Sequence record: MT611523.1
Length of the DNA: 64,000 bases
Source: Escherichia phage DK-13
Reading direction: 5' to 3' (one strand)
The position numbers and the translations under genes were made by a program. The notes below the pieces were generated by a model. That model did no database searches and was not told the DNA's origin. It saw nothing but the letters and a program-made list of their open reading frames with translations. This document shows, piece by piece, positions 13,601 to 61,281 of the stretch (within the stretch, counting starts at the first letter, position 1; each line of letters opens with the position of its first letter).

Positions 13601-14010
13601 CTATTATGTCTTATGGTCATCTTGTTCAGGCAAACGACAGCTATTCTACATATGTTCGAGATGTTTATGTCCGTTCTGATATTCGTGTTAAAAAAGACCT
13701 TGTTAAATTTGAAAATGCTTCTCAGAAGCTTTCTAAAATCAACGGTTACACTTATATGCAGAAACGTGGCCTGGATGAAGAAGGTAATCAGAAATGGGAA
13801 CCTAACGCTGGTTTAATTGCTCAAGAAGTTCAATCTATTTTACCTGAATTGGTTGAAGGCGACCCTGATGGTGAAGCTTTACTTCGTTTAAACTATAACG
13901 GTGTAATTGGTTTAAATACAGCTGCAATCAATGAGCATACTGCAGAAATTGCAGAACTTAAGTCAGAGATTGAAGAACTTAAAGCATTAATTAAATCATT
14001 GTTAAAATAA
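10681..14010 (+). CDS. 37: long tail fibre distal subunit gp37 with C-terminal intramolecular-chaperone-like domain
   Basis: 1109 aa; N-terminus [48 protein letters not shown] resembles T4 gp37; last ~110 aa (SDIRVKK...[15 protein letters not shown]...coiled-coil) resemble S74-type auto-cleaving chaperone domains. Confidence 0.9.
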
Positions 14011-14013
14011 TAA

Positions 14014-14031
14014 GAGGGGCTTCGGCCCCTT
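14014..14031 (+). other. C(UUCG)G-type hairpin between genes 37 and 38
   Basis: GAGGGGC-UUCG-GCCCCUU directly after gp37 stop and before the gp38 SD (GGAGG); no long U-run. Confidence 0.45.
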
Positions 14032-14041
14032 GGAGGTTTAT

Positions 14042-14839
14042 ATGGCAGTAGTAGGACCATGGGTTGGAGGGTCTGCAGTAGCTAATACAGGACAAAACTG
14101 GATGGGTGGCGCGGCCCAACGATTAAGAATGGGTGCTCCGTTTTGGATGAGCAATATGATAGGTCGGTCTGTTGAAGTAATTCATACTTTAGGTGGAGAC
14201 CATAACTTTAATGGGCAATGGTTTAGAGACCGTTGTTTTGAAGCCGGCGCTGCGCCTATTGTGTTTAATCTTACAGATACATTAGTATCTTATACCCCTG
14301 ATGTTCCATTGTTCTTTATGTATGCGGATACTCCAAACGAATACGTTGTTTTGAATATTCATGGTGGGGTTCATATGTGGGGACGTGGTGGTCACGGCGG
14401 TTGGACCCACTCAGGTGGAGACGGTAACGGCCAACGGGGTGGTGATTGTATAGTCAACCATATAGGTCATAGACTACGTATTTGGAACTATGGGGTTATC
14501 TGCGGCGGTGGCGGAGGCGGAGGCGGTATTGCTTATCGACCTCACTCAGGTGCTAACTGGCAAGATATCGGCGGTGGCGGCGGACGTCCATTTGGTCCAG
14601 GTGGTGGTGGCGGGTATTCCGGCGGCGGCGCTTCTTATGAAAGCCCTGGCGGTGGATACGATTATGGTAACGCCCACTCAGGTCGTGGCGGGGATGCCGG
14701 CGGTGCAGGCCAGAACGCATGGTCTGATGGTGGTAAAGTTCTAAAAGTCGGAGCCGGTGGCGGTTCTGGAGCTGCTGTTGCCGGTTATGCTCCTGCATGG
14801 GGCGCGACAGGTACGATTTACGGTCCTTGGCTTAGTTAA
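14042..14839 (+). CDS. 38: T2-type receptor-recognising adhesin gp38 with glycine-rich motifs
   Basis: ORF-track start 14030 is TTG; ATG at 14042 has GGAGG SD; MAVVGPW..GSAV...[28 protein letters not shown]...PLFFMY.DTPNEYV.LNIHGG followed by poly-Gly tracts resembles T2-like gp38 as recalled. Confidence 0.8.
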
Positions 14840-22353: not shown

Positions 22354-22947
22354 TCAGCTTGTAAACCGGTGATAGGGAAATTTTTCTTCTGAACAAGAAC
22401 GGAGGTACCAGCCATCCCCTTGTGACTTCTGCACAAGACCAGACTCAGGAACGAAAGCACCAGGCCCAGCAAGGAATTTTGGTTTAAATCTATAACCTTT
22501 GAGAGTCTCTTTTACATCGAGCATAATCATAAGGTCAGCAAGTTTGTGTTGCATAAAGGGACCAAGATTAACCCCGTAACCATGTGGATAATCGCCCTGG
22601 TGACCAGTATGCACGGATATCCATTTGGAACCAGACTGGTGGGTCTTGACTTCGATTCTTACCCCTTCCTTCGAAACTACATCAAATGCAAAGGAATAAG
22701 GATTATCGTAATCTTCATCACCGCCACATAAAAAACCGGAGGTCCATTTGGCAATAGCTTGTTCAGCCATTGTGGCCACCATACATCTTTGCATGACTTG
22801 CTCACGGTCCTGACCTGGGTCTTTACGCAATGAATACCGGGCAGTGTCTACAATCTTTTGCAGGGATTCGGGGGTTAAGTCTTCCTTTGTATAAAGGAAG
22901 GAGGGCATCTTTTTCAGATGCTCCCATGTTTTACTCTTCTGAATCAT
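22354..22947 (-). CDS. denB: DenB-like endonuclease (start uncertain)
   Basis: track ORF 22354..23031; start moved to ATG 22947 with AAGGA SD just after upstream stop; first ORF downstream of rIIB region as denB in T4; possible D-x(n)-E-V-K nuclease motif (AFDVVSKEGVRIEVK). Confidence 0.4.
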   Translation of the reverse strand: MIQKSKTWEHLKKMPSFLYTKEDLTPESLQKIVDTARYSLRKDPGQDREQVMQRCMVATMAEQAIAKWTSGFLCGGDEDYDNPYSFAFDVVSKEGVRIEVKTHQSGSKWISVHTGHQGDYPHGYGVNLGPFMQHKLADLMIMLDVKETLKGYRFKPKFLAGPGAFVPESGLVQKSQGDGWYLRSCSEEKFPYHRFTS

Positions 22948-29339: not shown

Positions 29340-29363
29340 AAGCAAAAAGGCCCGAAGGCCTTT
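29340..29363 (-). terminator. rho-independent terminator upstream of gene 39
   Basis: minus strand AAAGGCC-UUCG-GGCCUUU then U-rich tract. Confidence 0.5.
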
Positions 29364-29761
29364 TATTTGAATCGAAGCTGCTCTAACATTTTAATAGCTT
29401 GTAGACGTCCGGCTTCAGTTTTAACCGTAATAATAACATCACCGCCGGTAACAACGATATCCTCTTTTGATTCCTGTTCGGTTATTTCAGAATCACATTC
29501 CGGGACTTCTTCAAAATATTTAAATTCATCACCAAAAATAAGACCGGTTCCATTACGACTATGGAAAGAAAACCCAGTTCCATCGATAGTACTAAATTCC
29601 GTAACAACATTTGCTTCCATCTTAGTGACTGAAAACTCTTTGGTAGTAACCAAATCAATGATAGAGGTTCCTTGTTGGTTCAAAATGCTACCAGGCATAC
29701 CGACATGTTTAAGGAAGCCATCTAAATCTTTAATGCAATAACTCTTTCCAATTTTAAACAT
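29363..29761 (-). CDS. hypothetical protein (132 aa)
   Basis: track ORF 29363..29938; start moved to ATG 29761 (MFKIGK...) with GAGGA SD, which removes overlap with the lipoprotein gene. Confidence 0.45.
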   Translation of the reverse strand: MFKIGKSYCIKDLDGFLKHVGMPGSILNQQGTSIIDLVTTKEFSVTKMEANVVTEFSTIDGTGFSFHSRNGTGLIFGDEFKYFEEVPECDSEITEQESKEDIVVTGGDVIITVKTEAGRLQAIKMLEQLRFK

Positions 29762-29768
29762 AATATCC

Positions 29769-30029
29769 TCATTCGAATCGGATGGTTGAATTCTTAAACA
29801 GCAATCCAGAACAAACGGTTCCTTCAACTTTCTTACCAGTTGGGCCCACGGCTGTAAAACCTGTGTGTTGAAAATCATCTTTACCACAAGAGAACCAGTT
29901 ATAACCGGTGATTTGGATTTGCTCATAGCCGTTTGCATCTAATACACGAATGGCATTATCTGCATCAGTACAACCAGCCAATGAAACCGCCAGTACCAGT
30001 GCTGCAATAGAACGATTAATGTATTTCAT
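29769..30029 (-). CDS. small putative lipoprotein (86 aa)
   Basis: N-terminal signal peptide with lipobox LAGC (MKYINRSIAALVLAVSLAGC...). Confidence 0.55.
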   Translation of the reverse strand: MKYINRSIAALVLAVSLAGCTDADNAIRVLDANGYEQIQITGYNWFSCGKDDFQHTGFTAVGPTGKKVEGTVCSGLLFKNSTIRFE

Positions 30030-39332: not shown

Positions 39333-39566
39333 TTATTTTATCATAACCTTTTTAGTTAAAAGCTCGTCGGGATGCCTTCTGGCGTATGAAGGGCTTTCTT
39401 TTACTGGGGTATTTGAAATAACATCACTTAATTTATCAGCTCTAGCTTTTAATTCTACGTGTTCTTTTGAATCTTTAAAAGGATGACTAATTATTTGCAA
39501 ATTAAGACCATGTAATTCATATTTAAGCCCTTCCATAAATCTTGCTGGGCACCCGTAATTATTCAT
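39333..39566 (-). CDS. hypothetical protein (77 aa)
   Basis: ATG ORF abutting the 3' end of the HNH gene; could be a separate gene or a frameshifted C-terminal part. Confidence 0.35.
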   Translation of the reverse strand: MNNYGCPARFMEGLKYELHGLNLQIISHPFKDSKEHVELKARADKLSDVISNTPVKESPSYARRHPDELLTKKVMIK

Positions 39567-40392
39567 TTTCGAACCTCTTTACCATGTTTATATAATTTTC
39601 GTCTGGATAACCTAAACTAACTGCTAACTTTCTAAAATTCACATATTTAGGTTTGTTATTACTAAGCCATAAATCTCTAAGCTCAATTTCATAATTCCAT
39701 TTAAGCTGGTTTCCTCTAGCAGTTTTGCTCAAAGTTTTTCCTTTATCTTTTAGAGCTTTTTCCGAAGACTGTTTTAATTTTTGGAGATTTAAAACTTCCT
39801 CAACAGATAAATTATTTTCTTCTGCATAGCGCGCACAAAAATCTTTTACTGTAGCTATTAGACAGTTTTTGTGGGTACCTAAAACTTCCGGATTATTTTC
39901 TTCAACCAAAACTCCCCAGTATCTTCGATAGCGAGGCATATCCCGCGAAATCCAGTCATTATACCAGAAATCAAAATTAGAATACATAAAGGATTTTCTT
40001 TTACGGAGAATGTCTTGCTCTATCCACTCCCCGCGTTTATCGGCCCATAACTTAATAGTAAGGTCTTTCTCTAAATCAGAAAGCTTCTTAAACTGGGCAC
40101 TATTTGTTAGTGTCATTCTCTGGAATGCATTAAGCAAACCCAACACCCGAGTTGAGCACAAAAGATAATGAACATATATGTGTTGGTATATAGGAAGATA
40201 CACCCTATTCCAAGGAGAGATTTTAAAATCGCTGTATTCTGGAAATGCACACTTCGGAAGTATATGATGAGCTTCCGTTTTAGATTTGGTATGGACGTTT
40301 AGTTTATACTTATCTATAATTTTTAAGTAATCATCTAAAAGTTCCCATTGCGGGAACTTTTCTTTAAGAACGGATTTGAAATTAATATCCAT
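39559..40392 (-). CDS. HNH-family homing endonuclease-like protein
   Basis: track start 40407 is TTG; ATG at 40392 with AGGA SD; HNH motif EAHHILPKCAFPEYSDFKISPWNRVYLPIYQHIYVH; inserted between 56 and soc. Confidence 0.7.
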   Translation of the reverse strand: MDINFKSVLKEKFPQWELLDDYLKIIDKYKLNVHTKSKTEAHHILPKCAFPEYSDFKISPWNRVYLPIYQHIYVHYLLCSTRVLGLLNAFQRMTLTNSAQFKKLSDLEKDLTIKLWADKRGEWIEQDILRKRKSFMYSNFDFWYNDWISRDMPRYRRYWGVLVEENNPEVLGTHKNCLIATVKDFCARYAEENNLSVEEVLNLQKLKQSSEKALKDKGKTLSKTARGNQLKWNYEIELRDLWLSNNKPKYVNFRKLAVSLGYPDENYINMVKRFENE

Positions 40393-40897
40393 TGTCCTGA
40401 CGTTCAAAGTTGTGTTTATTTTTCAAATAATAAAGTTTAAACATTTCTTCGGCTGACATATTAAGACCAATAGCCATATTGAATACAAAGTGCATAATGT
40501 CAATTAATTCAAATTTAATTTCGAGTTGGTCTTCAGGAGACATTTCTGAAATAGGTTTAGCTTGTGCTTCCAGATAACGAGCTTTCCATTTTTTCCAGAC
40601 ACCTGAAGCATCTTTTTCACCTTTAGACATTTCACCGAGAGAAGTCAAAAGTTCACGGAATTCATCATCAATACAGTCTTTCTGTTCGCGCATCCAGGCA
40701 ACTACATCGCCTGCAGTGGCCAGTTTATCCGGATGGTAGCAATAATCACGGTCATTAGCCAGACGAACCTGCAATGATTTCTGCATATCAAGCATAACTT
40801 GCAGTGGGTCAGTGCCTTCAAAAATTGCATTATCATAAGCGCCTTGAGCTTTATCAACACCAGCAATCAGTTGAGAACACTCGTTAAAATGAGCCAT
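40382..40897 (-). CDS. 56: dCTP pyrophosphatase gp56
   Basis: start moved to ATG 40897 (MAHFNEC...); ...DPLQVMLDMQ..LQ.RLAN.R.YCYHPDKL.TAGDVV.WMREQKDCIDDEFRELLTSLGEMS.GEK.AS.VWKKWKARY.EAQ resembles T4 gp56. Confidence 0.9.
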   Translation of the reverse strand: MAHFNECSQLIAGVDKAQGAYDNAIFEGTDPLQVMLDMQKSLQVRLANDRDYCYHPDKLATAGDVVAWMREQKDCIDDEFRELLTSLGEMSKGEKDASGVWKKWKARYLEAQAKPISEMSPEDQLEIKFELIDIMHFVFNMAIGLNMSAEEMFKLYYLKNKHNFERQDNGY

Positions 40898-41358: not shown

Positions 41359-42108
41359 CTAAACTTTTGCGTACTTCCAAAAATGGCCGTTTGACCTATA
41401 CATTCGGCCTGTCTTTTTATTTCTTTTACAAGCTGTGTATATATTTTGAGTATTGCCCGCCAATTGTAATAATTCCTTTGCCTCAGCTCCCGAATTATAC
41501 TTTTCAAGTATATTACCAAATTCATCGCATCTACAAACCGGTGTTCCAGTTGCCTTTCGGCATGCTTCTCGGCGCAACTTTTTCGTTTCTTCGGTTTGCG
41601 GATTTTCTTTAAATCGTCTCATTTGTGCATCGCGATTCTTTTGCCGTTGTTCATCAGTAATTGGATTATTTTGATAATACAATTTTAATGAGTTGGCTAT
41701 TTTGCTTTTGGTTTTATCAGACGCAGGGTGGTCGTTATGTCGCTTGTGTAAAGCAATTAACATTTTGTCTTTAAACTCGGATTGACTCCATAAGTTTGAC
41801 ATATGTTCACTAACGGCTTTACTATGTTCTTTTCGCATCCATTCATATTTTGCGCTATCAAATTTGTCACCACACATCCGGTGTATAGCAAACATTAATT
41901 TAGAAAGTCGATAAATTTTAAAAAGTAACAAATGCGCAATAAAATGTTCTCTTGCTGATAACAATACCAAATTATCTTCGGTGTCAGGCCCACCCAAACA
42001 CCTTGGTAGTATATGATGGGACTCCGTATAAAATGGGATATTCTTTTTGTTTAGGCCCCTTGCGAGGCCTTTGTCTATTAATTTATTATATAATTTTAGA
42101 TAATTCAT
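41359..42108 (-). CDS. HNH-family homing endonuclease-like protein
   Basis: 249 aa; HNH motif ESHHILPRCLGGPDTEDNLVLLSAREHFIAH; N-terminus paralogous to plus-strand HNH ORF at 56212; inserted between 61 and 56. Confidence 0.75.
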   Translation of the reverse strand: MNYLKLYNKLIDKGLARGLNKKNIPFYTESHHILPRCLGGPDTEDNLVLLSAREHFIAHLLLFKIYRLSKLMFAIHRMCGDKFDSAKYEWMRKEHSKAVSEHMSNLWSQSEFKDKMLIALHKRHNDHPASDKTKSKIANSLKLYYQNNPITDEQRQKNRDAQMRRFKENPQTEETKKLRREACRKATGTPVCRCDEFGNILEKYNSGAEAKELLQLAGNTQNIYTACKRNKKTGRMYRSNGHFWKYAKV

Positions 42109-45719: not shown

Positions 45720-47159
45720 TTAAAATTTCATTTGAGCAGCAAGGTCGTCCAGGTCGCTCCTGTTGACCCTGGTTTGTCGATTCATTTCAGCCTGGCGATT
45801 CATCTCACCGGTGGCTTCTTTAACTGTAGGGCCTTGTTTAGGAGCCGAATCATCATCAACCTCATACCAGCGCTGATTACCTTTCTTAACACCCATCTTG
45901 AATTTATTATAGTAGTTCTTATCACCATAACGAGACTTAAGCTGTTTGATTAACTGCAGCCCCATTTGAGCGAATTCTTCGGTCTCAACAACACCCAACA
46001 TAAAGTCAGCTGTATGAGCAATACCAAAGGATTCTGCGATGTCAGCCATATCAATCTCAGCTGCAACGTTCGCGCCCCTGGTTGTCTGCGCTGCAGTCCA
46101 CAGGACCACATTTTTCTCGACTGCCAGACCACGAAGTTCTTCTGCAACCATCTTAATCAGACCGTAACTATTTTCGGTAAACGTTTTCAGTCTTGAGCTT
46201 GCACAGATTGCCAGGTAGTCAACAATAATCACATCTGGTACAAACCCTTGCTTCAGCTTGTACTCGTTCAGTAATGCACGGAAGGTGTCCGCATGAGCAC
46301 CGCCAGTTGGATATTGTTTTATCTTCAGAGTCCCAAGAGTCCCGGAAGCACGCCATTTTTCCATCTTAGCTTTATATTCCGCCCATGACACATGACCTTC
46401 ATCAATATCATCCAGAGATACATCCAGCAAGTTGGCATCAATACGTTTGGCACATACTTCTTCAGCCATTTCCATGCTTATATAAAGCACATTATGACCA
46501 GTCTGAAGATAGTCAGCGGCTAACGAACAAAGTCCAAGGGATTTGCCGACGTTCGTCCCGGCCAGTAAAACGTTCTCTGTACCGTACTCAACCCCACCCT
46601 TTGTGATTTTATTCAGGATGTTAATACGGAACGGAACCTTCTTCGATTTGTTCAGATAAGTCTGGAATCGAGCTTCGTAATCGTTTAACCAGTCATGGCC
46701 CAGAGCGGAGTCAAAACAGATAGACAATGCATCGCGCATGATGTCGGGGATAGCACCAATATCCGGGATTCGTTTATCACGTTTATCTTTAGGAAGTTCG
46801 GCATTACTCTGGATTTCGATAATCCTGGATGTGGCATTGAACATCGCAGACTTCTGTACATACTTCTCGGTTTCTTTAACCAACCAGTCCTGGTCTTCTG
46901 GAGTATCGGCCAGGACTCCTAAGAGTTTCTTTGTGCCTTCATATTCGACTTCAGAAAGGTCAGAACTGTCGAGCGCGATATCAAGTGCAGTCTTAGTTGG
47001 TACCGCTTGATATTCTTTTACGTGTTCGTTAATCGTATTAAAAAGGGTCTTTGCAGGACCCTTTTCAAAATATGTGTTATTCAGATATGGCCAGACTTTA
47101 ACAAAATATTCCTTGTTAAAGAGTAGCTGGGATAAAATAGTTTCTACCACTTCCACCAC
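45720..47159 (-). CDS. 41: replicative DNA helicase gp41 (DnaB-like)
   Basis: 479 aa; N-terminus MVE...LS.L.F...YF.KVWPY; Walker A GTNVGKS; resembles T4 gp41; track start is GTG. Confidence 0.93.
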   Translation of the reverse strand: MVEVVETILSQLLFNKEYFVKVWPYLNNTYFEKGPAKTLFNTINEHVKEYQAVPTKTALDIALDSSDLSEVEYEGTKKLLGVLADTPEDQDWLVKETEKYVQKSAMFNATSRIIEIQSNAELPKDKRDKRIPDIGAIPDIMRDALSICFDSALGHDWLNDYEARFQTYLNKSKKVPFRINILNKITKGGVEYGTENVLLAGTNVGKSLGLCSLAADYLQTGHNVLYISMEMAEEVCAKRIDANLLDVSLDDIDEGHVSWAEYKAKMEKWRASGTLGTLKIKQYPTGGAHADTFRALLNEYKLKQGFVPDVIIVDYLAICASSRLKTFTENSYGLIKMVAEELRGLAVEKNVVLWTAAQTTRGANVAAEIDMADIAESFGIAHTADFMLGVVETEEFAQMGLQLIKQLKSRYGDKNYYNKFKMGVKKGNQRWYEVDDDSAPKQGPTVKEATGEMNRQAEMNRQTRVNRSDLDDLAAQMKF

Positions 47160-47485
47160 CTCTTTTTCATTTTAATCTTATCAATTTCATCTTGTATTTG
47201 CATTGTAACACACTTTTCTACATGCACAGCAAGCTCCGCTTTGCGGTCTTCGGAAGGGGTACCGAAATCAACTGAAACTTTTCCAGATGGTTCAATTTTA
47301 ATTCCGGTTACGTACACAATGTGACTGGACCCATCAGGGAGTGATAACAGAATTTCCTGTCGTACAGTTCCCATGGATTGCCGGATAATCTCCAAACTTT
47401 TTTCGTAGTAAGGTACAGAAGGAGCCTTAGCTCCCTCCGCATCTTTCTCGAAATTATCTAAATCAGATAAATCGATATCATTCAT
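47144..47485 (-). CDS. hypothetical protein (113 aa), at the T4 gene 40 position
   Basis: track start 47488 is TTG; ATG at 47485; between uvsX and 41 as T4 gene 40. Confidence 0.45.
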   Translation of the reverse strand: MNDIDLSDLDNFEKDAEGAKAPSVPYYEKSLEIIRQSMGTVRQEILLSLPDGSSHIVYVTGIKIEPSGKVSVDFGTPSEDRKAELAVHVEKCVTMQIQDEIDKIKMKKRWWKW

Positions 47486-48656
47486 CAAGGTCTTCCATCA
47501 TATCTAAATCGTTTTCGATATCTGCAGCGGACGGTTTTGTCTTACCTTCAGGAGCAGAGTATTTTTCAACCTTGGAGGCAATAAGCGCATCAACTTCGGC
47601 ATCAACAACAGCATTGCTATCGATTGCACCCAGTTGGTAATGGCGTTTGATTGCATCACGGAAAGGTTCGTGTTTAAACAGCGGCCCCCAGAATTCGGTG
47701 CAGTTAGTATCTTTTGCGCGCCATGATTTTTCTTCGCGGACCATTTCCCCGGTCTCAACATCAAGATATTCACGGTTATACCAACCAACTTTTGGTTTAA
47801 CCACAAATCCGATTTCTATTGCCATATCAAGCAGGCCAGAATACGGGTCAATACCACCATCGAATTTTACATCAATGAAGAATTTACTTTTCTCTTTGAC
47901 CATACGAGATTTTTCGGCGTTCAGAACAAATTGGAAGCCTTCAAGTTCTTTACCAGTTTCTTTAATCTGACGTTTACCGATAATGAATACAGTGTCCGCG
48001 GAATACATAACACCTGTGCCACCGGTCATAACGGTTTTACTGTACATCTCAATCGTCTCGATTGTATGGTTAACCGCGACACAAGGAATATCCTTGATAC
48101 TAAAATAAGGGGTAACAATACGGAACAGAGATTTCAGGGATTTAGCACGAGTCATATCGCCAACGACTTTTTCGTTCATCGCATCTTCTGTTTCTTTTTT
48201 CGACGCCATGTTACCGATTGAGTCAATAAAGATAATGACTTTTTCACCACGCTCAATTGCTTCAAGCTGGTTAACCATATCAACTTTCAATTGTTCAACC
48301 GACTGGATTGGTGTATGGATAACACGCTCCGGGTCTACTTTCATTGCACGAAGATATGCTTCTGTGATACCAAATTCTGAATCATAGAACAAACAGATTG
48401 CGTCGGGGTATTTGTTCATATATGCAGAGACCATCGTTAAACCCATATTGGATTTAAAGTGTTTTGACGGACCAGCAAAAATAGTCAAACCTGACTGCAT
48501 ACCACCATCTAGTGCACCGCTGATTGCAATGTTCAGCATCGGGATTTTTGTACGAACTACATCTTTATCATTAAAGAACTTGGACTTGGTAAGAGTCGCA
48601 GTCATTTTGGATGTAGAAGCTTTAATCAAACGGGATTTCAAATCTGCAATAGACAT
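47478..48656 (-). CDS. uvsX: recombinase UvsX (RecA-like)
   Basis: 392 aa; MSIADLKSRLIKAS..K....L..SKFFN.KD...T..P.LN.A.SG; Walker A-like GPSKHFKS; resembles T4 UvsX. Confidence 0.93.
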   Translation of the reverse strand: MSIADLKSRLIKASTSKMTATLTKSKFFNDKDVVRTKIPMLNIAISGALDGGMQSGLTIFAGPSKHFKSNMGLTMVSAYMNKYPDAICLFYDSEFGITEAYLRAMKVDPERVIHTPIQSVEQLKVDMVNQLEAIERGEKVIIFIDSIGNMASKKETEDAMNEKVVGDMTRAKSLKSLFRIVTPYFSIKDIPCVAVNHTIETIEMYSKTVMTGGTGVMYSADTVFIIGKRQIKETGKELEGFQFVLNAEKSRMVKEKSKFFIDVKFDGGIDPYSGLLDMAIEIGFVVKPKVGWYNREYLDVETGEMVREEKSWRAKDTNCTEFWGPLFKHEPFRDAIKRHYQLGAIDSNAVVDAEVDALIASKVEKYSAPEGKTKPSAADIENDLDMMEDLDE

Positions 48657-48735
48657 TCATTTTTTCCATAGGCACCATTATATTTTTCTCACAGGTTTAA
48701 GATAGGATAATTATATCACTGTATTTTCAGAGCAA

Positions 48736-48864
48736 TTAACGATTGAATCCACGATTAATTGCACGTTCAACAATCTTCCGGGTCTGACGTTTGTCCCACC
48801 AGTACATAAAACCAATACCAAATGCAGACAACAGCCATAGGCTAATCAATAACATACCAATCAT
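48736..48864 (-). CDS. small hydrophobic peptide (42 aa)
   Basis: manual translation MIGMLLISLWLLSAFGIGFMYWWDKRQTRKIVERAINRGFNR. Confidence 0.3.
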   Translation of the reverse strand: MIGMLLISLWLLSAFGIGFMYWWDKRQTRKIVERAINRGFNR

Positions 48865-48885
48865 AATATTCTTCTCGCAGTTTGT

Positions 48886-49389
48886 TTAGTTAATACCTTG
48901 GCGTGCTTTCTCTTTAGCTACACATTTATTAATATAGCTCAGACGGTTTTGAGCAGAACGCTGATACATATCGCGGTACTCATTAGCTTTTGGAGAACCC
49001 GTCTCTGCTGCCTGATAAGCTTCTGCGCGCATGATGTTTATCTGCATATTGATGTATGACATGCAGACCTGTGAAATCTGGTTAACAGTATCCAGGTCAT
49101 TTTGTCGCTTGGTTTCTGCTTCCAGCTTGGCAATGATTTCGTCATGCTTCGCAGCTTGCTCGCGTTTGTACTCAATTTCTTGTTGAGCATATTTCGCGCA
49201 GTTGTTTCCACATTGATTGTTGTCGCGTTTGTAGATAAGTCCAGTACCACCTTTGAAATCAAAGGAACCATTATGCACCTGACGGTCTGCAGCAATTCGC
49301 GCTTTACCAATCTCGTTGGCATTAACAACATCACCCTGGTAAGCACAACCAGATAGCAGCATAACAGCTGCGATAGCTAACTTTTTCAT
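48886..49389 (-). CDS. putative lipoprotein (167 aa)
   Basis: signal peptide plus lipobox MKKLAIAAVMLLSGC; coiled-coil-like remainder; occupies the interval where T4 has beta-gt and gene 42. Confidence 0.55.
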   Translation of the reverse strand: MKKLAIAAVMLLSGCAYQGDVVNANEIGKARIAADRQVHNGSFDFKGGTGLIYKRDNNQCGNNCAKYAQQEIEYKREQAAKHDEIIAKLEAETKRQNDLDTVNQISQVCMSYINMQINIMRAEAYQAAETGSPKANEYRDMYQRSAQNRLSYINKCVAKEKARQGIN

Positions 49390-49537
49390 TTTGCTTCCTA
49401 ATTAAAACATTCATAGCGGGCTTGGAGCCCCAAAAATACCCAACCCAAAATTAAAGTTGGAATCATATGTGGAGTCATTATTGCCCAGTAGATTGACATA
49501 CTAAAAAATGCAATCAGTACAATAATTGTAATTATCT

Positions 49538-49780
49538 TCATTTTGATTCCTTGATGATAATTACTTGTGCGTTTGATTTACGTTCAGCAACGAGTGCCCA
49601 GATAAATGCAATAAACCATCCGACCATTGTCCAACCTAACAGAAGGTTAACAAAGAAGATTCCGCAATTACTTTTGGTACCACGCAGCAGCGCGATAATC
49701 CACGGCAGAAAATATGCCAGTGCAGCCAGGAAGAAAGAACCAGCCCCAAGAACAACAGTACCCGCAATTAATGTTTCCAT
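49538..49780 (-). CDS. imm: immunity protein Imm-like (superinfection exclusion membrane protein)
   Basis: 80 aa with two hydrophobic segments; immediately downstream of gene 43 as T4 imm. Confidence 0.55.
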   Translation of the reverse strand: METLIAGTVVLGAGSFFLAALAYFLPWIIALLRGTKSNCGIFFVNLLLGWTMVGWFIAFIWALVAERKSNAQVIIIKESK

Positions 49781-49817
49781 TTTAATATCCTTAAGTTATT
49801 CATCAGTTGATGAGGTA

Positions 49818-49847
49818 ATCATACGGCAATCCATTGCCGTTGTAAAC
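49818..49847 (-). promoter_or_regulatory. sigma70-like early promoter with stem-loop
   Basis: minus strand GTTTAC (-35), inverted repeat ACGGCAAT/ATTGCCGT in the spacer, TATGAT (-10), leader TCATCAACTGATGA. Confidence 0.45.
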
Positions 49848-49849
49848 AC

Positions 49850-52564
49850 TTAAAAGTCAAACATGTCAAAAAGAGTTGCTTTCTTTTCGTAATCAACCTT
49901 TGCAGCTTCAGAGAAACCTGTTAATGGCTTAACAAAAGTCTTCTGGAACAGTGTGTTGTAGTCCATCCACTGCAGAACCTGGTCACGGATTTCAATCGGG
50001 AGTTCAATCCCAGATGGCCATGCAATCACGGTTTCACCAAACGGGTTGCCGACTTTAAGAGGAAGTACATACACCTTTTCCCCTTCCATGATTTGCGGAA
50101 CAGTCTTCAGACCTTTAGTTGCACGCATATAAGCAAGCACACCTTTGATATGAGCCGGGCACTTAAATCCAGGGAAACCACCTTCATTATATTTCTGGAT
50201 GTTGTTAACCGATGATACACCTGCGATGGTCATGTAGTTAAGCTCATTAAATTCCTTATTGAATTCCTTGAAGTATGTCTGCAGAGATTCTTCACCTTCT
50301 TGCAGCATGCGGCGGATACATTCTTTCAGAGCTTTCTGACATGCCTTTGGAGTACTCGACTTTTGAGTTTCCAGACCCATAATTTTCAGTTTCGGAACAG
50401 CATAACGTGTGCCTTCCATATCGTACACGTTCAGCGCATAACGCTTCTTCGCCGTCCAGAATCCACCCACACCTTTAGAACCCAGCGGAGGACATGCAAT
50501 CGCCTCACGGTCCATAAACATAAGGTGCTGTTTGTTGTTCATGTATTCAGCCAGCTCACGGAAAGCTTTATCGATTGCCGGTTCCAGACGGTCTTTCGCA
50601 AACTTGTCCATGAAGTCAACCAGGTGGTTTGTATCACGGAATTTAGATTCGCCACCAACCTTTTTAATCAGGTTATCACACTGGATATAAATGGAGTCAG
50701 TATCGCCATAGAACACATAAGTTTCGCCGCTTGTCCCACAAACACTATCGAAGTATTCGTTAACTTTACGCTCAATCCACTGCAATGCAAGTTGTCCGAA
50801 AGATGTAATCGCGGTTGCATTTCGCAGGTCAAAGTAACGGAACCAGATATTGCCCAGAGCGCCATAACAGCTGTTGATAAGCAGCTTACGGTTAATCTGT
50901 GCGGTCATGCCTGCAACTTCTTCCATCTGCGCTTTATACAACATACCATTTAGGACTGTTTGATTCAGACCATGCAAGGTTGTTTTCATATTGTCATCAA
51001 AGTCATGACGATAATCAACTTCAGGTTCGGTTGTACCAGTTCCTGGATTGCGCAGAGCTTCCTTAATCAGTTCACCATTACGTTGAGCCGCAAGCATATA
51101 GCCTTTGTGCTCTTTACGCTGATTAAACACCTTGGTGACTTCTGTCGGAATAATACCCGCAACATCTTTAAAATACATCATACCATTTGGAGCACAACTA
51201 AATGTATCAGATGGACGGTCAGCAGTTCCGGCGATGTATTCATGCATTTGCGCAGGAGCAAATGAACCGGCAATCGTTTCTGGACTGATGTTAATCTGTC
51301 GGATAATGCTCGGATACAGAGATGTTAAGTCACAGCTCATTACATATTTGTACGCGTTCGGAATAGGTTCCTTAACAAATGCACCAGGGAACGATTGACG
51401 AACATGCGATTTGGTTTCCGGAATGACTTTGTTTTGAGTCTTCAGGCTGTTAAAGATAATCGCATCCCAAGTTTTGATTGGGCTGAATACAGACTGAATC
51501 TGCATTTTTGCGTAATAACCCATTGACTGACTCAGGTTAATAAACTGCCGCTTACGGTCAATCTGCACAACACGATAAACGTCGATGATGTTATAAGAAA
51601 TATACCGCTGGTGATTTGATTCGCGCAGTTTAGAAATCGGGCCATCATACGGGAGTTTACCAACACCCAGTTCAGATTCCGCAACATAATCCAACGAATA
51701 AGACGGTTGGTTTGTGAAGCTGAACTTTTTATACAGGTCCAGATAATCCAGAACAGAGATACCCAGAATCTGAATGATTTCTTGTTCTTCACCAAAGCCA
51801 TTGTTAATGACCTTAACTTTTGTACGACGATGTGGGCTCAGACGTTTTGCCGTAGCTTCACCAAATACATTTTTAAGGCGGTTGTAGATATATGGAATAT
51901 CAAATTTCTCGATGTTCCAACCAGTTAACATAACCGGAGTTTTCTCGTTCCAGAATACCAAATACTGCTGGAGCATTTCTTCTTCTGAATCGAAAGCCAT
52001 ATAAACAATTTTTTCCAGGATTTCTTCAGGGACTTCATCACCGCCGTCTTCCTGCAGCTTAGCAGCAATATCAATAGACCATTGCTCCACAGTGGCGTAT
52101 GGTGAGCCCAAAAGGTCAAAGACATAGAATTTATCGTCTACCGAATCATAGTGCGTCAGGGCATCAATAGGGTGACGTGCTTCAGACGGTTCAGGGAACC
52201 CATCAGGAGATGTCACCTCGATATCGAAGTTAGCAACACGGATTTTACTTGAATCATATTTGATTTCGTGTGGGTAACGGTCGGACAAGTATGCGAGTTT
52301 AAAGTCATCCATACCCATAGCTTCGAGACCCATGTCATTCATTCGCTTCATCCACTGGGATGCATCACGCATGGAATCGAATTCTTTTTTCACACAACCT
52401 TTATTATAGATGTCTGTATACTTTGCAGCCTGGCCTTCCCGGGCGTGCATAAACAAGCATGGGGCATAAGGGATTTCACGAACACGTTCATGACCATTCT
52501 TGTCAATATATCGTTCGAGTAGGTTGTCACCGATTTGTTCGATAGTTAAATAAAATTCTTGCAT
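49850..52564 (-). CDS. 43: DNA polymerase gp43 (family B)
   Basis: 904 aa; N-terminus M.EFY..IE..G.N..ERYID.NG.ER.RE; family-B motifs incl. YGDTDS; resembles T4 gp43. Confidence 0.95.
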   Translation of the reverse strand: MQEFYLTIEQIGDNLLERYIDKNGHERVREIPYAPCLFMHAREGQAAKYTDIYNKGCVKKEFDSMRDASQWMKRMNDMGLEAMGMDDFKLAYLSDRYPHEIKYDSSKIRVANFDIEVTSPDGFPEPSEARHPIDALTHYDSVDDKFYVFDLLGSPYATVEQWSIDIAAKLQEDGGDEVPEEILEKIVYMAFDSEEEMLQQYLVFWNEKTPVMLTGWNIEKFDIPYIYNRLKNVFGEATAKRLSPHRRTKVKVINNGFGEEQEIIQILGISVLDYLDLYKKFSFTNQPSYSLDYVAESELGVGKLPYDGPISKLRESNHQRYISYNIIDVYRVVQIDRKRQFINLSQSMGYYAKMQIQSVFSPIKTWDAIIFNSLKTQNKVIPETKSHVRQSFPGAFVKEPIPNAYKYVMSCDLTSLYPSIIRQINISPETIAGSFAPAQMHEYIAGTADRPSDTFSCAPNGMMYFKDVAGIIPTEVTKVFNQRKEHKGYMLAAQRNGELIKEALRNPGTGTTEPEVDYRHDFDDNMKTTLHGLNQTVLNGMLYKAQMEEVAGMTAQINRKLLINSCYGALGNIWFRYFDLRNATAITSFGQLALQWIERKVNEYFDSVCGTSGETYVFYGDTDSIYIQCDNLIKKVGGESKFRDTNHLVDFMDKFAKDRLEPAIDKAFRELAEYMNNKQHLMFMDREAIACPPLGSKGVGGFWTAKKRYALNVYDMEGTRYAVPKLKIMGLETQKSSTPKACQKALKECIRRMLQEGEESLQTYFKEFNKEFNELNYMTIAGVSSVNNIQKYNEGGFPGFKCPAHIKGVLAYMRATKGLKTVPQIMEGEKVYVLPLKVGNPFGETVIAWPSGIELPIEIRDQVLQWMDYNTLFQKTFVKPLTGFSEAAKVDYEKKATLFDMFDF

Positions 52565-55979: not shown

Positions 55980-56198
55980 TTAATCAAAGTATTCATATGC
56001 AAACCAGGCATTGTGTCTGTTCGCGATTATTTTAACATATTCTTCACCGAAAGCGTTTTGTAAGTCACGTTCAGTAACAAGGTGTTCATCTTTCGAAAAG
56101 GTATTAACTAACACATATCGTTTAATTTCAGGGACAGCCAGTAAATGCTGCCCGGTTAAAAAATTGCTCATAAATAATATTATCCGTTGCAGTATCAA
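55980..56198 (-). CDS. hypothetical protein (72 aa or shorter)
   Basis: track start is TTG; internal ATG at 56171; position as T4 45.2. Confidence 0.4.
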   Translation of the reverse strand: MILQRIILFMSNFLTGQHLLAVPEIKRYVLVNTFSKDEHLVTERDLQNAFGEEYVKIIANRHNAWFAYEYFD

Positions 56199-56211
56199 AC
56201 AAGGGTCTGAT

Positions 56212-56928
56212 ATGAATTATAACATCATTTACCAAAAGCTTATTAGCAGAGCATTGAATCGCAAATTAACCACATACTCTGAAAGTCATCACATTATACC
56301 CCGTTGCATGGGTGGGGCAGACGACGCTTCAAATCTTGTTGATTTAACTCCCGAGGAACATTTCGTTTGTCATCAACTGTTGGTCAAAATGCATCCAAAT
56401 AATGCTTCTTTGGTCTATGCCGCGCGCATGATGACAGTTTCCTCACCAAACGCCGACAGAAGCAAAAACAAATTATTTGGATGGCTTCGTCGTAAAAACT
56501 TGGAAGCTCAACAAAATAAAATTTTCTCCGATGAAACCAGAAAGAAAATGTCAGAATCCGCCAAATTAAAACCGAGAGTTGAATGTCCACACTGTGGAAA
56601 AACCGGTCTCGTTGGCAATATGAATCGTTGGCATTTTGATAACTGTTCCAAAGGTCCAAACAAGGTTGTTCATACTATTCCAGAAAAACAAAAGCAAAAA
56701 ATTTCAGTAGGATTAAAACAAGCTAAACATGAAATTTTAACTTGTGAATTTTGTGGTCTTGAAGGTAAAAAGTGTGTTATATCCACTCACCAACAATTCT
56801 GCAAATCCAATCCAAACCGGAAGAAAAAGGTGGACCCCAAAATTCAGTGTCCACATTGTAATGTAGTCGGTACGCCAGCCAATATGAAACGTTGGCATTT
56901 TGATAACTGCAAAATGAAGCCTCAATAA
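56212..56928 (+). CDS. HNH-family homing endonuclease-like protein with three C-terminal zinc-finger-like repeats
   Basis: track ORF 56011..56928; start moved to ATG 56212 (MNYNIIYQKL...); HNH motif ESHHIIPRCMGGADDASNLVDLTPEEHFVCH; repeats CPHCGKTGLVGNMNRWHFDNC, CEFCGLEGKKC, CPHCNVVGTPANMKRWHFDNC; only plus-strand gene in this early block. Confidence 0.75.
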   Translation: MNYNIIYQKLISRALNRKLTTYSESHHIIPRCMGGADDASNLVDLTPEEHFVCHQLLVKMHPNNASLVYAARMMTVSSPNADRSKNKLFGWLRRKNLEAQQNKIFSDETRKKMSESAKLKPRVECPHCGKTGLVGNMNRWHFDNCSKGPNKVVHTIPEKQKQKISVGLKQAKHEILTCEFCGLEGKKCVISTHQQFCKSNPNRKKKVDPKIQCPHCNVVGTPANMKRWHFDNCKMKPQ

Positions 56929-60085: not shown

Positions 60086-60225
60086 AAGCCAAGCGCCGTT
60101 ATCGCAGTGCAAAATAAAATTATTGAAATGAACCCGTCAGGAGTGGAAAAGAATCCTATCCAACAAGCTCTTGTGAATGTGTAGAATGCCATGAATAGCA
60201 CGACATATCCTAAAAATAATTCCAT
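60082..60225 (-). CDS. small membrane peptide (47 aa)
   Basis: manual translation MELFLGYVVLFMAFYTFTRACWIGFFSTPDGFISIILFCTAITALGL; GAGGAG SD; stop overlaps gp47 ATG (ATGA). Confidence 0.35.
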   Translation of the reverse strand: MELFLGYVVLFMAFYTFTRACWIGFFSTPDGFISIILFCTAITALGL

Positions 60226-60514
60226 ATACTCTCCTCAGTTGGTTCATTTTATCATCCCGAATATAAAGCAAAAAAGGAAGCACTAGGCTTCCTTTCCAAT
60301 TAATACACCATACAGAGGTTCATGAGAAGACCTGAACTTGATAGGCTTATAGGTAATAGTACCTTCATTTTCTGCTTTAATACGAGCAGCTTCAAATTGA
60401 AGAATCATCTCGTTTTTGTCAGATTTAATCTTATCAAAATCCGTCGAATTCGTCATTCATATGACCTCTTAAAAATCTGGATGTTCGTCGTTCATTAGCC
60501 ACCTGTCCATGTTA

Positions 60515-60715
60515 TCATCGTTGCCACCATTTCTTAAGTTGATGAGAATCGACCCAAACCTTGGCTACAGGCTCAATCTGAAAAATACCATCAGAATATT
60601 GGCCCATCATTTTGTATTCGGTTTCGGTTTGCTTGATACAGATATTACCGTATGAGCGAAGTCTGAAAGCGGCTCCAACAAGAAGCCGTTTAAAAGGTTT
60701 ATTTACTAATGCCAT
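60515..60715 (-). CDS. hypothetical protein (66 aa)
   Basis: ATG ORF in the 47-55 interval. Confidence 0.4.
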   Translation of the reverse strand: MALVNKPFKRLLVGAAFRLRSYGNICIKQTETEYKMMGQYSDGIFQIEPVAKVWVDSHQLKKWWQR

Positions 60716-61010
60716 TTACGATTTCCCAAATTTGTTTGCGAGTAGAATCCCACATCAACTTAATCAGGTCTTCCGTAACTGGTTGGCGGTAAATTCCACG
60801 CAGTTTAACAAGAGCATATTTGTATGCTTCAAAATTGTTTTCCAGCACTGCCCCTTGAGCATGCTTATTCAGTCGTGCAATTTCACGAGCATTCTTTTTC
60901 AGAATCTTCGCTGCTTGACTGGTTGCTTCGAGTGCGTTCGCTTCTTCGAGACGTTCCTGTGCTTCTTCAATCTGCTTATCGGTCAGTTGAGAAATATCTG
61001 GAGCTTGCAT
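60699..61010 (-). CDS. hypothetical protein (103 aa)
   Basis: ATG ORF in the 47-55 interval. Confidence 0.45.
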   Translation of the reverse strand: MQAPDISQLTDKQIEEAQERLEEANALEATSQAAKILKKNAREIARLNKHAQGAVLENNFEAYKYALVKLRGIYRQPVTEDLIKLMWDSTRKQIWEIVNGISK

Positions 61011-61011
61011 A

Positions 61012-61281
61012 TTAATCCTTGGGAGTTAACTCAATTGTAAAATATAGATTAGCATTATCCACATGATAACGGTAATCAACGTTATTGTCCGGAGAAGTAA
61101 ATTCCAGATTCCGGACGTTTAAAGGGTCGATATCAATTGGAAGACCTTTTATGTCTCGCAGATAAAGTTTAATGAAATATGGGAGAGCCGTAAAGTCTTC
61201 CTCGATTTTATCTAAAAAATCGGTAATATCAAATTGATGTTCCATATAAAAAATCCAAATCACCCTCTTTATCTTTGGCAC
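61012..61281 (-). CDS. hypothetical protein (89 aa, start uncertain)
   Basis: track start is GTG; internal ATG at 61245; overlaps 3' end of gene 55. Confidence 0.35.

Follow-up and report, generated by a model that had tools for sequence, protein, structure and literature searches.

Between uvsX, which encodes a RecA-like recombinase, and gene 43, which encodes the DNA polymerase, the 64,000-nucleotide stretch of Escherichia phage DK-13 analysed here (record MT611523.1; hereafter the window) contains four small genes, all on the minus strand, as is every gene of the 47.4-52.6 kb stretch in the open reading frame (ORF) listing (Table 1). In order from uvsX, they encode a 42-amino-acid (aa) membrane peptide, a 167-aa lipoprotein, a 47-aa membrane protein and the superinfection immunity protein Imm. 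The T4 order is uvsX, segA, b-gt, 42, imm, imm.1, 43, and the original prediction, made from the letters of the window, held that the genes for beta-glucosyltransferase (b-gt, or beta-gt) and dCMP hydroxymethylase (gene 42) are missing between uvsX and imm, a claim borne out by the ORFs and by tblastn searches of the 64-kb window. The order that it gave for T4 (uvsX, beta-gt, 42, imm, 43) fits as far as it goes, but leaves out segA and imm.1. The lipobox on the 167-aa ORF is confirmed, and the 42-aa and 167-aa ORFs are both present as described, but they are not the only contents of the gap, the 47-aa ORF having been overlooked. The distance from uvsX to imm, put at about 1.2 kb, is in fact 881 bp, 1.2 kb being the distance to gene 43. 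The imm product is a small two-helix protein adjoining gene 43 and belongs to the Imm family, with a PF14373 score of 64.2 bits against a cut-off of 27.9, a match to phrog_1039 (1.9e-30) and 52% identity to T4 Imm.

The textbook example of cytosine hypermodification is that of the T-even phages, and the genus to which the window is assigned below, Gaprivervirus, is without every known modifying enzyme yet carries machinery that destroys or silences cytosine-containing DNA (C-DNA), namely dCTPase, DenB and Alc. Recent comparative papers flag this puzzle as unexplained, and it blocks advice on the safety of these phages in therapy, where transduction is the risk at issue. The substitution Asn177Asp in the phage-encoded thymidylate synthase, Td, provides a concrete and directly testable candidate, which predicts phage DNA containing 5-methylcytosine (5mC).

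Table 1. Features of the window, with positions counted from its first letter
Feature	Position	Strand	Identification or remark
Distal tail-fibre module	10681-14839	+	gp37, gp38
denB (endonuclease IV homologue; cytosine-DNA-specific in T4)	22354-22947	-	96% identity to VR7 DenB over 197 aa
191-aa ORF	29363-29938	-	adjoins gene 39
ORF beside gene 56	39559-40407	-	no VR7 counterpart at this site
Gene 56 (dCTPase/dUTPase homologue)	40382-40897/40915	-	85.5% identity to VR7 gp56; Pfam dUTPase_2, 2.7e-5
ORF beside gene 56	41359-42108	-	no VR7 counterpart at this site
gp40	47144-47488	-	identified by Pfam
uvsX (RecA-like recombinase)	47478-48656	-	left border; 79% identity to T4 UvsX, 98.5% to VR7 UvsX; Pfam T4_UVSX_C, 7e-39
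Putative middle-promoter-like element	48710-48735	-	TTGCTCT (MotA-box-like), then TATAAT; upstream of uvsX
42-aa single-pass membrane peptide ORF	48736-48864	-	N-terminal transmembrane helix and basic tail
167-aa lipoprotein ORF	48886-49389	-	lipobox L-S-G-C15; T4 Imm.1 family by profile
47-aa two-helix membrane ORF (gp42.1 in VR7 annotation)	49398-49541	-	phrog_3610, 7.6e-27
imm (superinfection immunity membrane protein, 80 aa)	49538-49780	-	Pfam PF14373 Imm_superinfect, 1e-17
Sigma-70-like promoter match	49818-49846	-	TTTACA-17-TATGAT; between gene 43 stop and imm
Putative hairpin, 6-bp stem	49824-49839		CGGCAA-TCCA-TTGCCG; inside the sigma-70-like match
Gene 43 (DNA polymerase)	49850-52564	-	right border; 98.6% identity to VR7 gp43, 78% to VR5 gp43
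ORF beside gene 46	56011-56928	+	no VR7 counterpart at this site
Interval between genes 47 and 55	60113-61228	-	alpha-gt site in T4; only small ORFs of a-gt.2 to a-gt.5 type here

Gene 42 and sugar-transfer genes in Gaprivervirus

The best megablast matches of the locus are all Gapriverviruses (P479, 98.7%; CJ20, 98.1%; SP18, 98%; VR7, 94.6%), and 32 records cover at least 80% of the query. Proteins of VR7 are 95-99% identical to those of the window, with which the VR7 genome is colinear throughout (frd.1, tail fibres, rIIB/rIIA, genes 39, 56, 41, 43, 46, 47, 55 and 55.6). By sequence, the window is that of a Gaprivervirus, the VR7/SP18/P479 group of T4-like coliphages. The gp56, alc and denB set of the T4-type pathway is present, gp56 and denB being encoded in the window, where the predicted position of gene 56 stands, and alc in VR7. 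The latter phage retains gene 56, gene 1, cd, frd, alc, denA, denB and ndd, and its annotation includes no arn and no dam. Homologues of gp56 occur also in T4-like phages with unmodified cytosine, as tabulated in a 2025 paper.

Neither T4 gp42 nor the beta- or alpha-glucosyltransferase (beta-gt, alpha-gt) has a tblastn match anywhere in the window, and no enzyme of the RB69 arabinosylation cluster (gp45-55) matches it; RB69p054 alone does so, and corresponds to the 47-aa ORF. The search that the original prediction had proposed, for gene 42, alpha-gt, beta-gt and other transferases, was extended to the complete VR7 genome, which was assembled from four sequence fetches and then searched as a whole. 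Tblastn returned no match there to gp42, alpha-gt, beta-gt, the RB69 arabinosylation enzymes or VR5_042-046 of the Dhakavirus VR5, and the arabinosyltransferase and UDP-arabinose genes (RB69 gp45-47, gp50-53 and gp55; VR5_042-046) are unmatched in the window and in VR7 alike. The only ThyA-family locus in the complete VR7 genome, with queries that included E. coli ThyA, the thymidylate synthase (TS) homologue of phage Xp12 and T4 gp42, is td, to which alone the RB69 gp48 and VR5_043 queries match weakly (E = 0.004). Both the interval between genes 47 and 55 and that between uvsX and imm are too small to hold a glucosyltransferase.

The absence of gene 42 in Gaprivervirus is already known from two papers. 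One, in Frontiers in Microbiology in 2021 (PMC8056088), reports the genus to be without any known enzyme for a non-canonical base, yet to possess DenB, Alc, DenA and dCTPase, and offers as explanation 'possibly an unknown protein'; Acinetobacter phages ZZ1 and 133 and Morganella phage MP1 are further T4-like phages for which it reports no known modification enzyme. The 2025 paper, too, finds gene 42 missing across the genus, with dCTPase, denA, denB, alc and ndd kept. The absence is thus a documented open question and not an artefact. Two explanations had been left standing in the original prediction, relocation of gene 42 or a modification pathway unlike that of T4. In the former case, gene 42 and a glucosyl- or arabinosyltransferase located elsewhere in the genome would produce ordinary T-even-type hypermodified cytosine. 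The complete VR7 genome is without these genes, the two papers report the same for the genus, VR7 DNA is reported as unglycosylated in a restriction study discussed below, and all 32 records with this locus type carry an Asp-type Td, with one ThyA-family match per listed Gaprivervirus record. Relocation is therefore highly improbable, even though the window covers no more than 64 kb of a genome of roughly 170 kb and T4-like genomes are mosaic, the tail-fibre module of the window itself being VR5-like. A pathway unlike that of T4 is, on the other hand, favoured by the modified, unglycosylated DNA of VR7 and by the predicted switch in td.

The origin of the locus is best appreciated from VR5, in which the order is uvsX, VR5_042-046, VR5_047 (the lipoprotein), imm, 43. 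The best matches of the five intervening genes are RB69 gp46:47 (arabinosyltransferase 1) for VR5_042, gp48 for VR5_043 (80% identity), gp45 (kinase) for VR5_044, gp51 for VR5_045 and gp52:53 for VR5_046, while VR5_047 is 51% identical to the lipoprotein of the window. RB69 gp48 is a 5-hydroxy-dCMP (5hodCMP) synthase by experiment (Lee et al., Nucleic Acids Research (NAR) 2026). The VR5 cluster occupies ~4.2 kb and comprises arabinosyltransferase 1, the 5-hydroxy-dCMP synthase (a gene 42 homologue), a nucleotide kinase, a phosphatase and a sugar nucleotidyltransferase/kinase. A locus without this cluster was read directly in the window, P479, VR7, VR25, SP18 and EAWsc9, and the same layout is seen in 926-bp stretches of VR20, RZ and MN01, which include the 3' end of the lipoprotein gene, the 42-aa ORF and the start of uvsX. 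The VR5 gene matches and the activity of RB69 gp48 together indicate that the Gaprivervirus uvsX-43 interval is a Dhakavirus-type interval minus its ~4.2-kb five-gene cytosine-modification cluster. What remains at the locus are the resident envelope genes, consisting of imm, the 47-aa ORF, the Imm.1-family lipoprotein and an optional 42-aa cassette. The suggestion that the lipoprotein and membrane peptide sit there instead of 42 and beta-gt does not survive this comparison: the lipoprotein is present in both genera, lying beside imm in VR5 as well, which keeps the cluster, and it is therefore no substitute for the lost genes, and the 42-aa ORF is variable.

In the view of the 2021 and 2025 papers, an enzyme outside the ThyA family would make an undescribed cytosine derivative, the Asp residue of Td then being unrelated or secondary. 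Such a view draws on a literature in which the base is left unnamed and on the many small Gaprivervirus ORFs without an assigned function. Those VR7 ORFs of 70 aa or more that found no counterpart in VR5 (compared outside positions 84001-124999, a structural region) proved to be homing endonucleases, internal head proteins and small ORFs, with no plausible enzyme among them. In the window, no ORF that lacks such a counterpart is longer than 121 aa. Pfam searches with ten candidate replacement ORFs returned Endonuclease_7, T5orf172/MUG113 and DUF7275/7277 and no modification enzyme. Given the outcome of the VR7 screen, and since an Asp177 Td already explains modified, unglycosylated cytosine, the existence of such an enzyme appears improbable.

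Individual candidates were also inspected. VR7ORF147c (L004 15136-15561), a cytidine/deoxycytidylate deaminase according to its record note, has no Pfam match and no HxE or PCxxC motifs; it was rejected, and the annotation looks unfounded on sequence grounds. The four larger window ORFs listed in Table 1 (191 aa and 249-305 aa) were rejected as metabolic enzymes, having HNH, zinc-ribbon or no Pfam matches, and are consistent with mobile endonucleases. VR7ORF134c (L004 9937-10623), a member of the RB69 ORF132c family that is found in VR5 as well, has no Pfam match and displays an HHD ... H ... R pattern reminiscent of 2-oxoglutarate-Fe(II) oxygenases; the gene is common to phages with other cytosine chemistries.

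Asp177 of the phage thymidylate synthase

Attention turned to td because no Gaprivervirus-specific enzyme was found. The gene belongs to an nrdA-td-frd cluster and, in the closest relative, P479, lies 1.66 kb beyond the point that corresponds to the window start, its flank matching the latter at 97.8%. Residue positions are given in E. coli ThyA numbering. The Td proteins of VR7 and P479 have the sequence LGLPF-D-IGSY; the corresponding stretch is LGLPF-N-IASY in VR5 Td and in every canonical thymidylate synthase. Among the best 120 relatives from 5.8 billion searched proteins, Asp177 is common to the four clusters at 85-98% identity, and the other 116, T4-like Td clusters at 69% identity or less, all have Asn177. 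The four make up a Gaprivervirus clade that includes SP18, Yersinia phage P8 and two metagenomic clusters; Gaprivervirus Td is ~65% identical to the Tequatrovirus Td clusters. A tblastn search with the motif region detected Asp-type Td in 32 phage records, the next best matches having 82% identity. These 32 include every one of the 30 listed records with the cluster-less locus; the other two are VR25 records. In the listed Gaprivervirus records, there is one ThyA-family match apiece.

The P8-type Td cluster is ~85% identical to VR7 Td, and both subclades have Asp177. Fixation of this residue across two Td subclades that are 85% identical argues for selection. CJ20 and TH40 rank among the nearest relatives of the window at the uvsX locus, yet carry Td of the Yersinia phage P8 subclade (97% motif match), and therefore point to recombination within the genus.

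Apart from residue 177, the Gaprivervirus enzyme is, by sequence, an intact thymidylate synthase. It is colinear with T4 Td (PDB 1TIS, 5.7e-128), retains C146, H147, R21, E58, Y94, R166, F176, H207 and Y209, with every other catalytic residue, in alignments, and has clade-specific changes beside the base pocket (A179G, A182G and F149L). According to two reports cited in the later literature (Hardy & Nalivaika 1992; Liu & Santi 1992), the substitution N177D changes the substrate of TS from dUMP to dCMP, with 5-methyl-dCMP as the product. By published diagnostics, a bulky hydrophobic residue at position 143 goes with a methyl product and an acidic one with a hydroxymethyl product, and D169N marks a 5hodCMP synthase. 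With L143 and a full C-terminus, td does not encode a gp42 of the T4 type, and the retention of D169 likewise sets it apart from the 5hodCMP synthase combination of D169N, N177D and L143E (Table 2). The features expected of an Xp12-type enzyme (Asp177, a hydrophobic residue 143, an intact C-terminus, Cys146 and the folate-site residues) are all found in the sequences of the relatives.

Table 2. Diagnostic positions in ThyA-family enzymes
Enzyme	143	169	177	C-terminus
Gaprivervirus Td	L	D	D	full TS C-terminus (...PMAV)
T4 gp42	D	D	D	truncated
RB69 gp48	E	N	D	truncated
Xp12 TS homologue	N	D	D	extended, diverged at tip

The chemistry of VR7 DNA has been addressed by restriction analysis, including treatment with T4 beta-glucosyltransferase. 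That study (Gordeeva et al., NAR 2019; PMC6326788) states that 'VR7 has modified cytosines' and that its DNA is unglycosylated; it calls T4 147 hydroxymethylated and T4 and VR5 glycosylated, and lists VR7 apart from T4 147. With moderate confidence, Td(Asp177) is predicted to be a dCMP methyltransferase that gives rise to 5mC-containing phage DNA. A dCMP methyltransferase is the most economical reading and fits DNA described as modified and unglycosylated and not called hydroxymethylated.

A different product of the same enzyme would have other consequences. If Td(Asp177) made 5-hydroxymethyl-dCMP or another C5 adduct, the DNA would contain non-glucosylated 5-hydroxymethylcytosine (hmC), as in T4 gt mutants. 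T4 gp42 also has Asp at position 177, many restriction enzymes are blocked by 5mC and hmC alike, and, in the same study, the BREX system blocks VR7 completely, as strongly as it blocks T4 147 with its hmC DNA. Position 143 is nevertheless Leu, where hydroxymethylases have Asp or Glu, and the C-terminus that closes the TS site for hydride transfer is intact here and missing from gp42 and gp48. Together with the choice of words in the restriction study, which included beta-glucosyltransferase treatment and called T4 147 'hydroxymethylated' and VR7 only 'modified', and with the lack of an annotated arn, these differences make an hmC product unlikely.

The modified cytosines reported for VR7 also disfavour ordinary cytosine DNA of the kind found in RB49/RB43-type phages, in which case gp56 would act mainly as a dUTPase and Td(Asp) would be poorly active or a TS of dual specificity. 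The retention of alc and denB, incompatible with C-DNA in T4, and the selection suggested by a fixed Asp in both Td subclades argue in the same direction, and this explanation is judged quite unlikely, despite the gp56 homologues of T4-like phages with unmodified cytosine and a GC content that bears no sign of 5mC decay.

As far as relatives show, the missing function has not been relocated; it is proposed to have been taken over by the td orthologue. In the proposed pathway, gp56 would convert dCTP and dCDP to dCMP, which Td(Asp177) would methylate to 5-methyl-dCMP with methylene-tetrahydrofolate (CH2-THF), the neighbouring Frd recycling dihydrofolate. The gp1 dNMP kinase and the host nucleoside diphosphate kinase would then generate 5-methyl-dCTP, from which gp43 would polymerise DNA with 5-methylcytosine in place of cytosine. 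Alc, DenA and DenB would still be able to tell host C-DNA from phage DNA, and dTMP would be supplied by host ThyA, by Tk and by breakdown of host DNA. Such a scheme resembles those of Xp12, T4 and RB69, where cytosine is likewise modified as a nucleotide, by an enzyme of the ThyA family. The balance tips, if only slightly, toward Gapriverviruses being the first Straboviridae with 5mC in place of cytosine, made at the nucleotide level by their own Td, which N177D would have switched from dUMP to dCMP after loss of the cluster, with dTMP left to the host.

Several points weigh against this proposal. The td gene lies outside the window, and Asp177 is seen in relatives and not in the DK-13 genome itself; absence of gene 42 from a complete genome was tested here in VR7 alone. 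The phage would be left without a thymidylate synthase of its own. Full replacement of cytosine by 5mC should expose phage DNA to McrBC, McrA and Mrr of E. coli, yet RZ was isolated on K-12 MG1655, and no arn homologue is annotated; growth on K-12 despite McrBC and Mrr would require an inhibitor of another kind. The wording of the restriction report, 'modified cytosines', does not specify 5mC. The natural Xp12 enzyme carries N143 and P147 instead of L143 and H147, and the diagnostic residue code is therefore imperfect. Full-text literature searches, whose scope did not extend to the original VR7 and VR5 genome papers (Arch Virol 2010, 2011), retrieved no report of a Td dCMP methylase in Gaprivervirus, and the Asp observation may, given the place of the VR7 paper outside that search, not be new.

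Were the proposal correct, it would answer the question of a non-canonical base raised for the genus in 2021 and 2025, and would show that a one-residue neofunctionalisation hitherto engineered in the laboratory has also occurred in nature. It would also mean that the chemistry of a phage's DNA can be changed by the deletion of one cluster plus one residue in a housekeeping enzyme, and that annotations of phage 'thymidylate synthase' can conceal dCMP-modifying enzymes. The predicted defence profile would be one of sensitivity to McrBC, Mrr and BREX and of resistance to many type II enzymes.

Envelope genes at the locus and neighbouring features

The 167-aa lipoprotein is placed in the T4 Imm.1 family by its match to phrog_1754 (6.6e-47; profile positions 2-147/148), the same PHROG that T4 Imm.1 matches at 6.1e-43. 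The two proteins share the lipobox, a mature N-terminal Q-G-x-V-V motif, three conserved cysteines and adjacency to imm. They differ in that T4 Imm.1 comprises 125 aa, the protein of the window having an inserted GTG..Y..QCGxNC hairpin, that overall identity is 26%, and that T4 Imm.1 sits on the opposite side of imm. Alignments show a conserved G-T-G..Y..QCGxNC motif plus Cys109 and Cys156 to be common to the family members, of which an exhaustive HMMER search of 1.8 billion representatives found only 16. In E. coli lipoprotein sorting, Ala at position +2 implies an outer-membrane anchor. Because the lipoprotein has this residue, it is probably anchored in the outer membrane, facing the periplasm.

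An AlphaFold (AF2) model of moderate confidence (pLDDT 76.7) consists of a beta-hairpin followed by a long helical hairpin. Foldseek searches with this model gave nothing below E = 1 in the PDB, only generic helical hairpins, and only uncharacterised T4-like homologues in BFVD. The sequence has no significant Pfam family, and its sole PHROG match is of uncharacterised role. In the original prediction, the lipoprotein was a candidate factor for superinfection exclusion or receptor masking. Pfam, PHROG and Foldseek reveal no likeness in sequence or fold to characterised exclusion proteins (T5 Llp, Cor) or lysozyme inhibitors, Llp and Cor not having been compared directly and PADLOC not having been run, and a literature search on imm.1 returned nothing functional. 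Constant adjacency to imm is the only hint at an envelope or exclusion role. This lipoprotein and its small membrane-protein neighbours are taken to be early envelope proteins, probably co-transcribed with imm and with a possible role in superinfection exclusion; lipoprotein, peptides and imm alike are ordinary T4-like accessory genes.

Identity between the 47-aa ORF and RB69p054, which bears the annotation 'similar to T4 42-imm intercistronic region', is 64%. The 42-aa ORF has no Pfam or PHROG match and was found by tblastn in only 16 phage records (95-100% identity), all of them Escherichia phages and mostly identifiable Gapriverviruses. Its ratio of nonsynonymous to synonymous change (pN/pS) is mostly 0-0.2 across 6 phages and 0.8 in one pair, with very few substitutions in all; these low values suggest a real, translated gene. 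It is also a variable cassette, absent from some Gapriverviruses: in SP18 and EAWsc9, it is removed by a ~140-bp indel flanked by a CRTTAATTKCT direct repeat. RZ and MN01 have an additional 35-aa membrane-peptide ORF between lipoprotein and 42-aa ORF (L015/L017 266-373, corresponding to window positions 48865-48885). The spot is therefore one at which tiny membrane genes come and go.

The element that abuts the stop codon of the 42-aa ORF is invariant in an alignment of 8 phages; we take it to resemble the T4 middle-promoter consensus, and a promoter role is putative. Sigma-70-like matches in the region, including that between gene 43 and imm, which encloses the hairpin, are no more numerous than in shuffled sequence.

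Elsewhere in the window, gp37 and gp38 of the distal tail-fibre module are 65% and 60% identical in amino acid sequence to those of Dhakavirus VR5, as against 33% and no match for VR7, and gp38 is a 269-aa adhesin type, where VR7 gp38 has 181 aa; the module is a host-range module swapped between genera. The three ORFs of 249-305 aa (Table 1) have weak similarity to Seg/Mob-type genes elsewhere, one of them with an HNH match, and probably represent homing endonucleases inserted next to gene 56 and gene 46. The 191-aa ORF has no Pfam match, and the same slot in VR7 is occupied by a 231-aa Endonuclease_7-domain gene. In VR7, alc is adjoined by the 77-aa ORF243c, which has an Alc-like N-terminus (L005 36496-37243) and may be a partial duplication of alc.

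Comparison with known cytosine-modification systems

Of the known systems, that of RB69 and Dhakavirus (5-hydroxy-dCMP synthase with arabinosylation) has its genes, in VR5, between uvsX and the lipoprotein and imm genes that are paired in Gaprivervirus too, an arrangement that represents an ancestral-like form of the locus. Gaprivervirus has none of the five cluster genes. The T4 gene 42/glucosyltransferase system shares with Gaprivervirus the neighbourhood (uvsX ... imm, 43) and the same upstream logic, consisting of the gp56 dCTPase, the gp1 kinase and the discrimination of C-DNA by alc and denB. Gaprivervirus differs from T4 in being without homologues of gp42, alpha-gt and beta-gt, and VR7 is without an annotated arn or dam.

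The closest natural parallel for the proposed chemistry is the Xanthomonas phage Xp12, with 5mC DNA, in which an Asp177 ThyA-family enzyme is encoded beside dihydrofolate reductase, together with a dCMP deaminase, and all phage cytosines are modified without sugars. Xp12 is a Xanthomonas siphovirus whose enzyme is ~30% identical to VR7 Td, whereas that of Gaprivervirus, with its predicted activity, is an almost canonical orthologue of T4 Td with few active-site differences. Engineered TS variants, N177D in E. coli and N229D in L. casei, carry the same single substitution in an otherwise intact TS and are reported to prefer dCMP over dUMP and to form 5-methyl-dCMP. These are laboratory mutants, whereas the change in Gaprivervirus is natural, fixed in the genus and accompanied by A179G, A182G and F149L.

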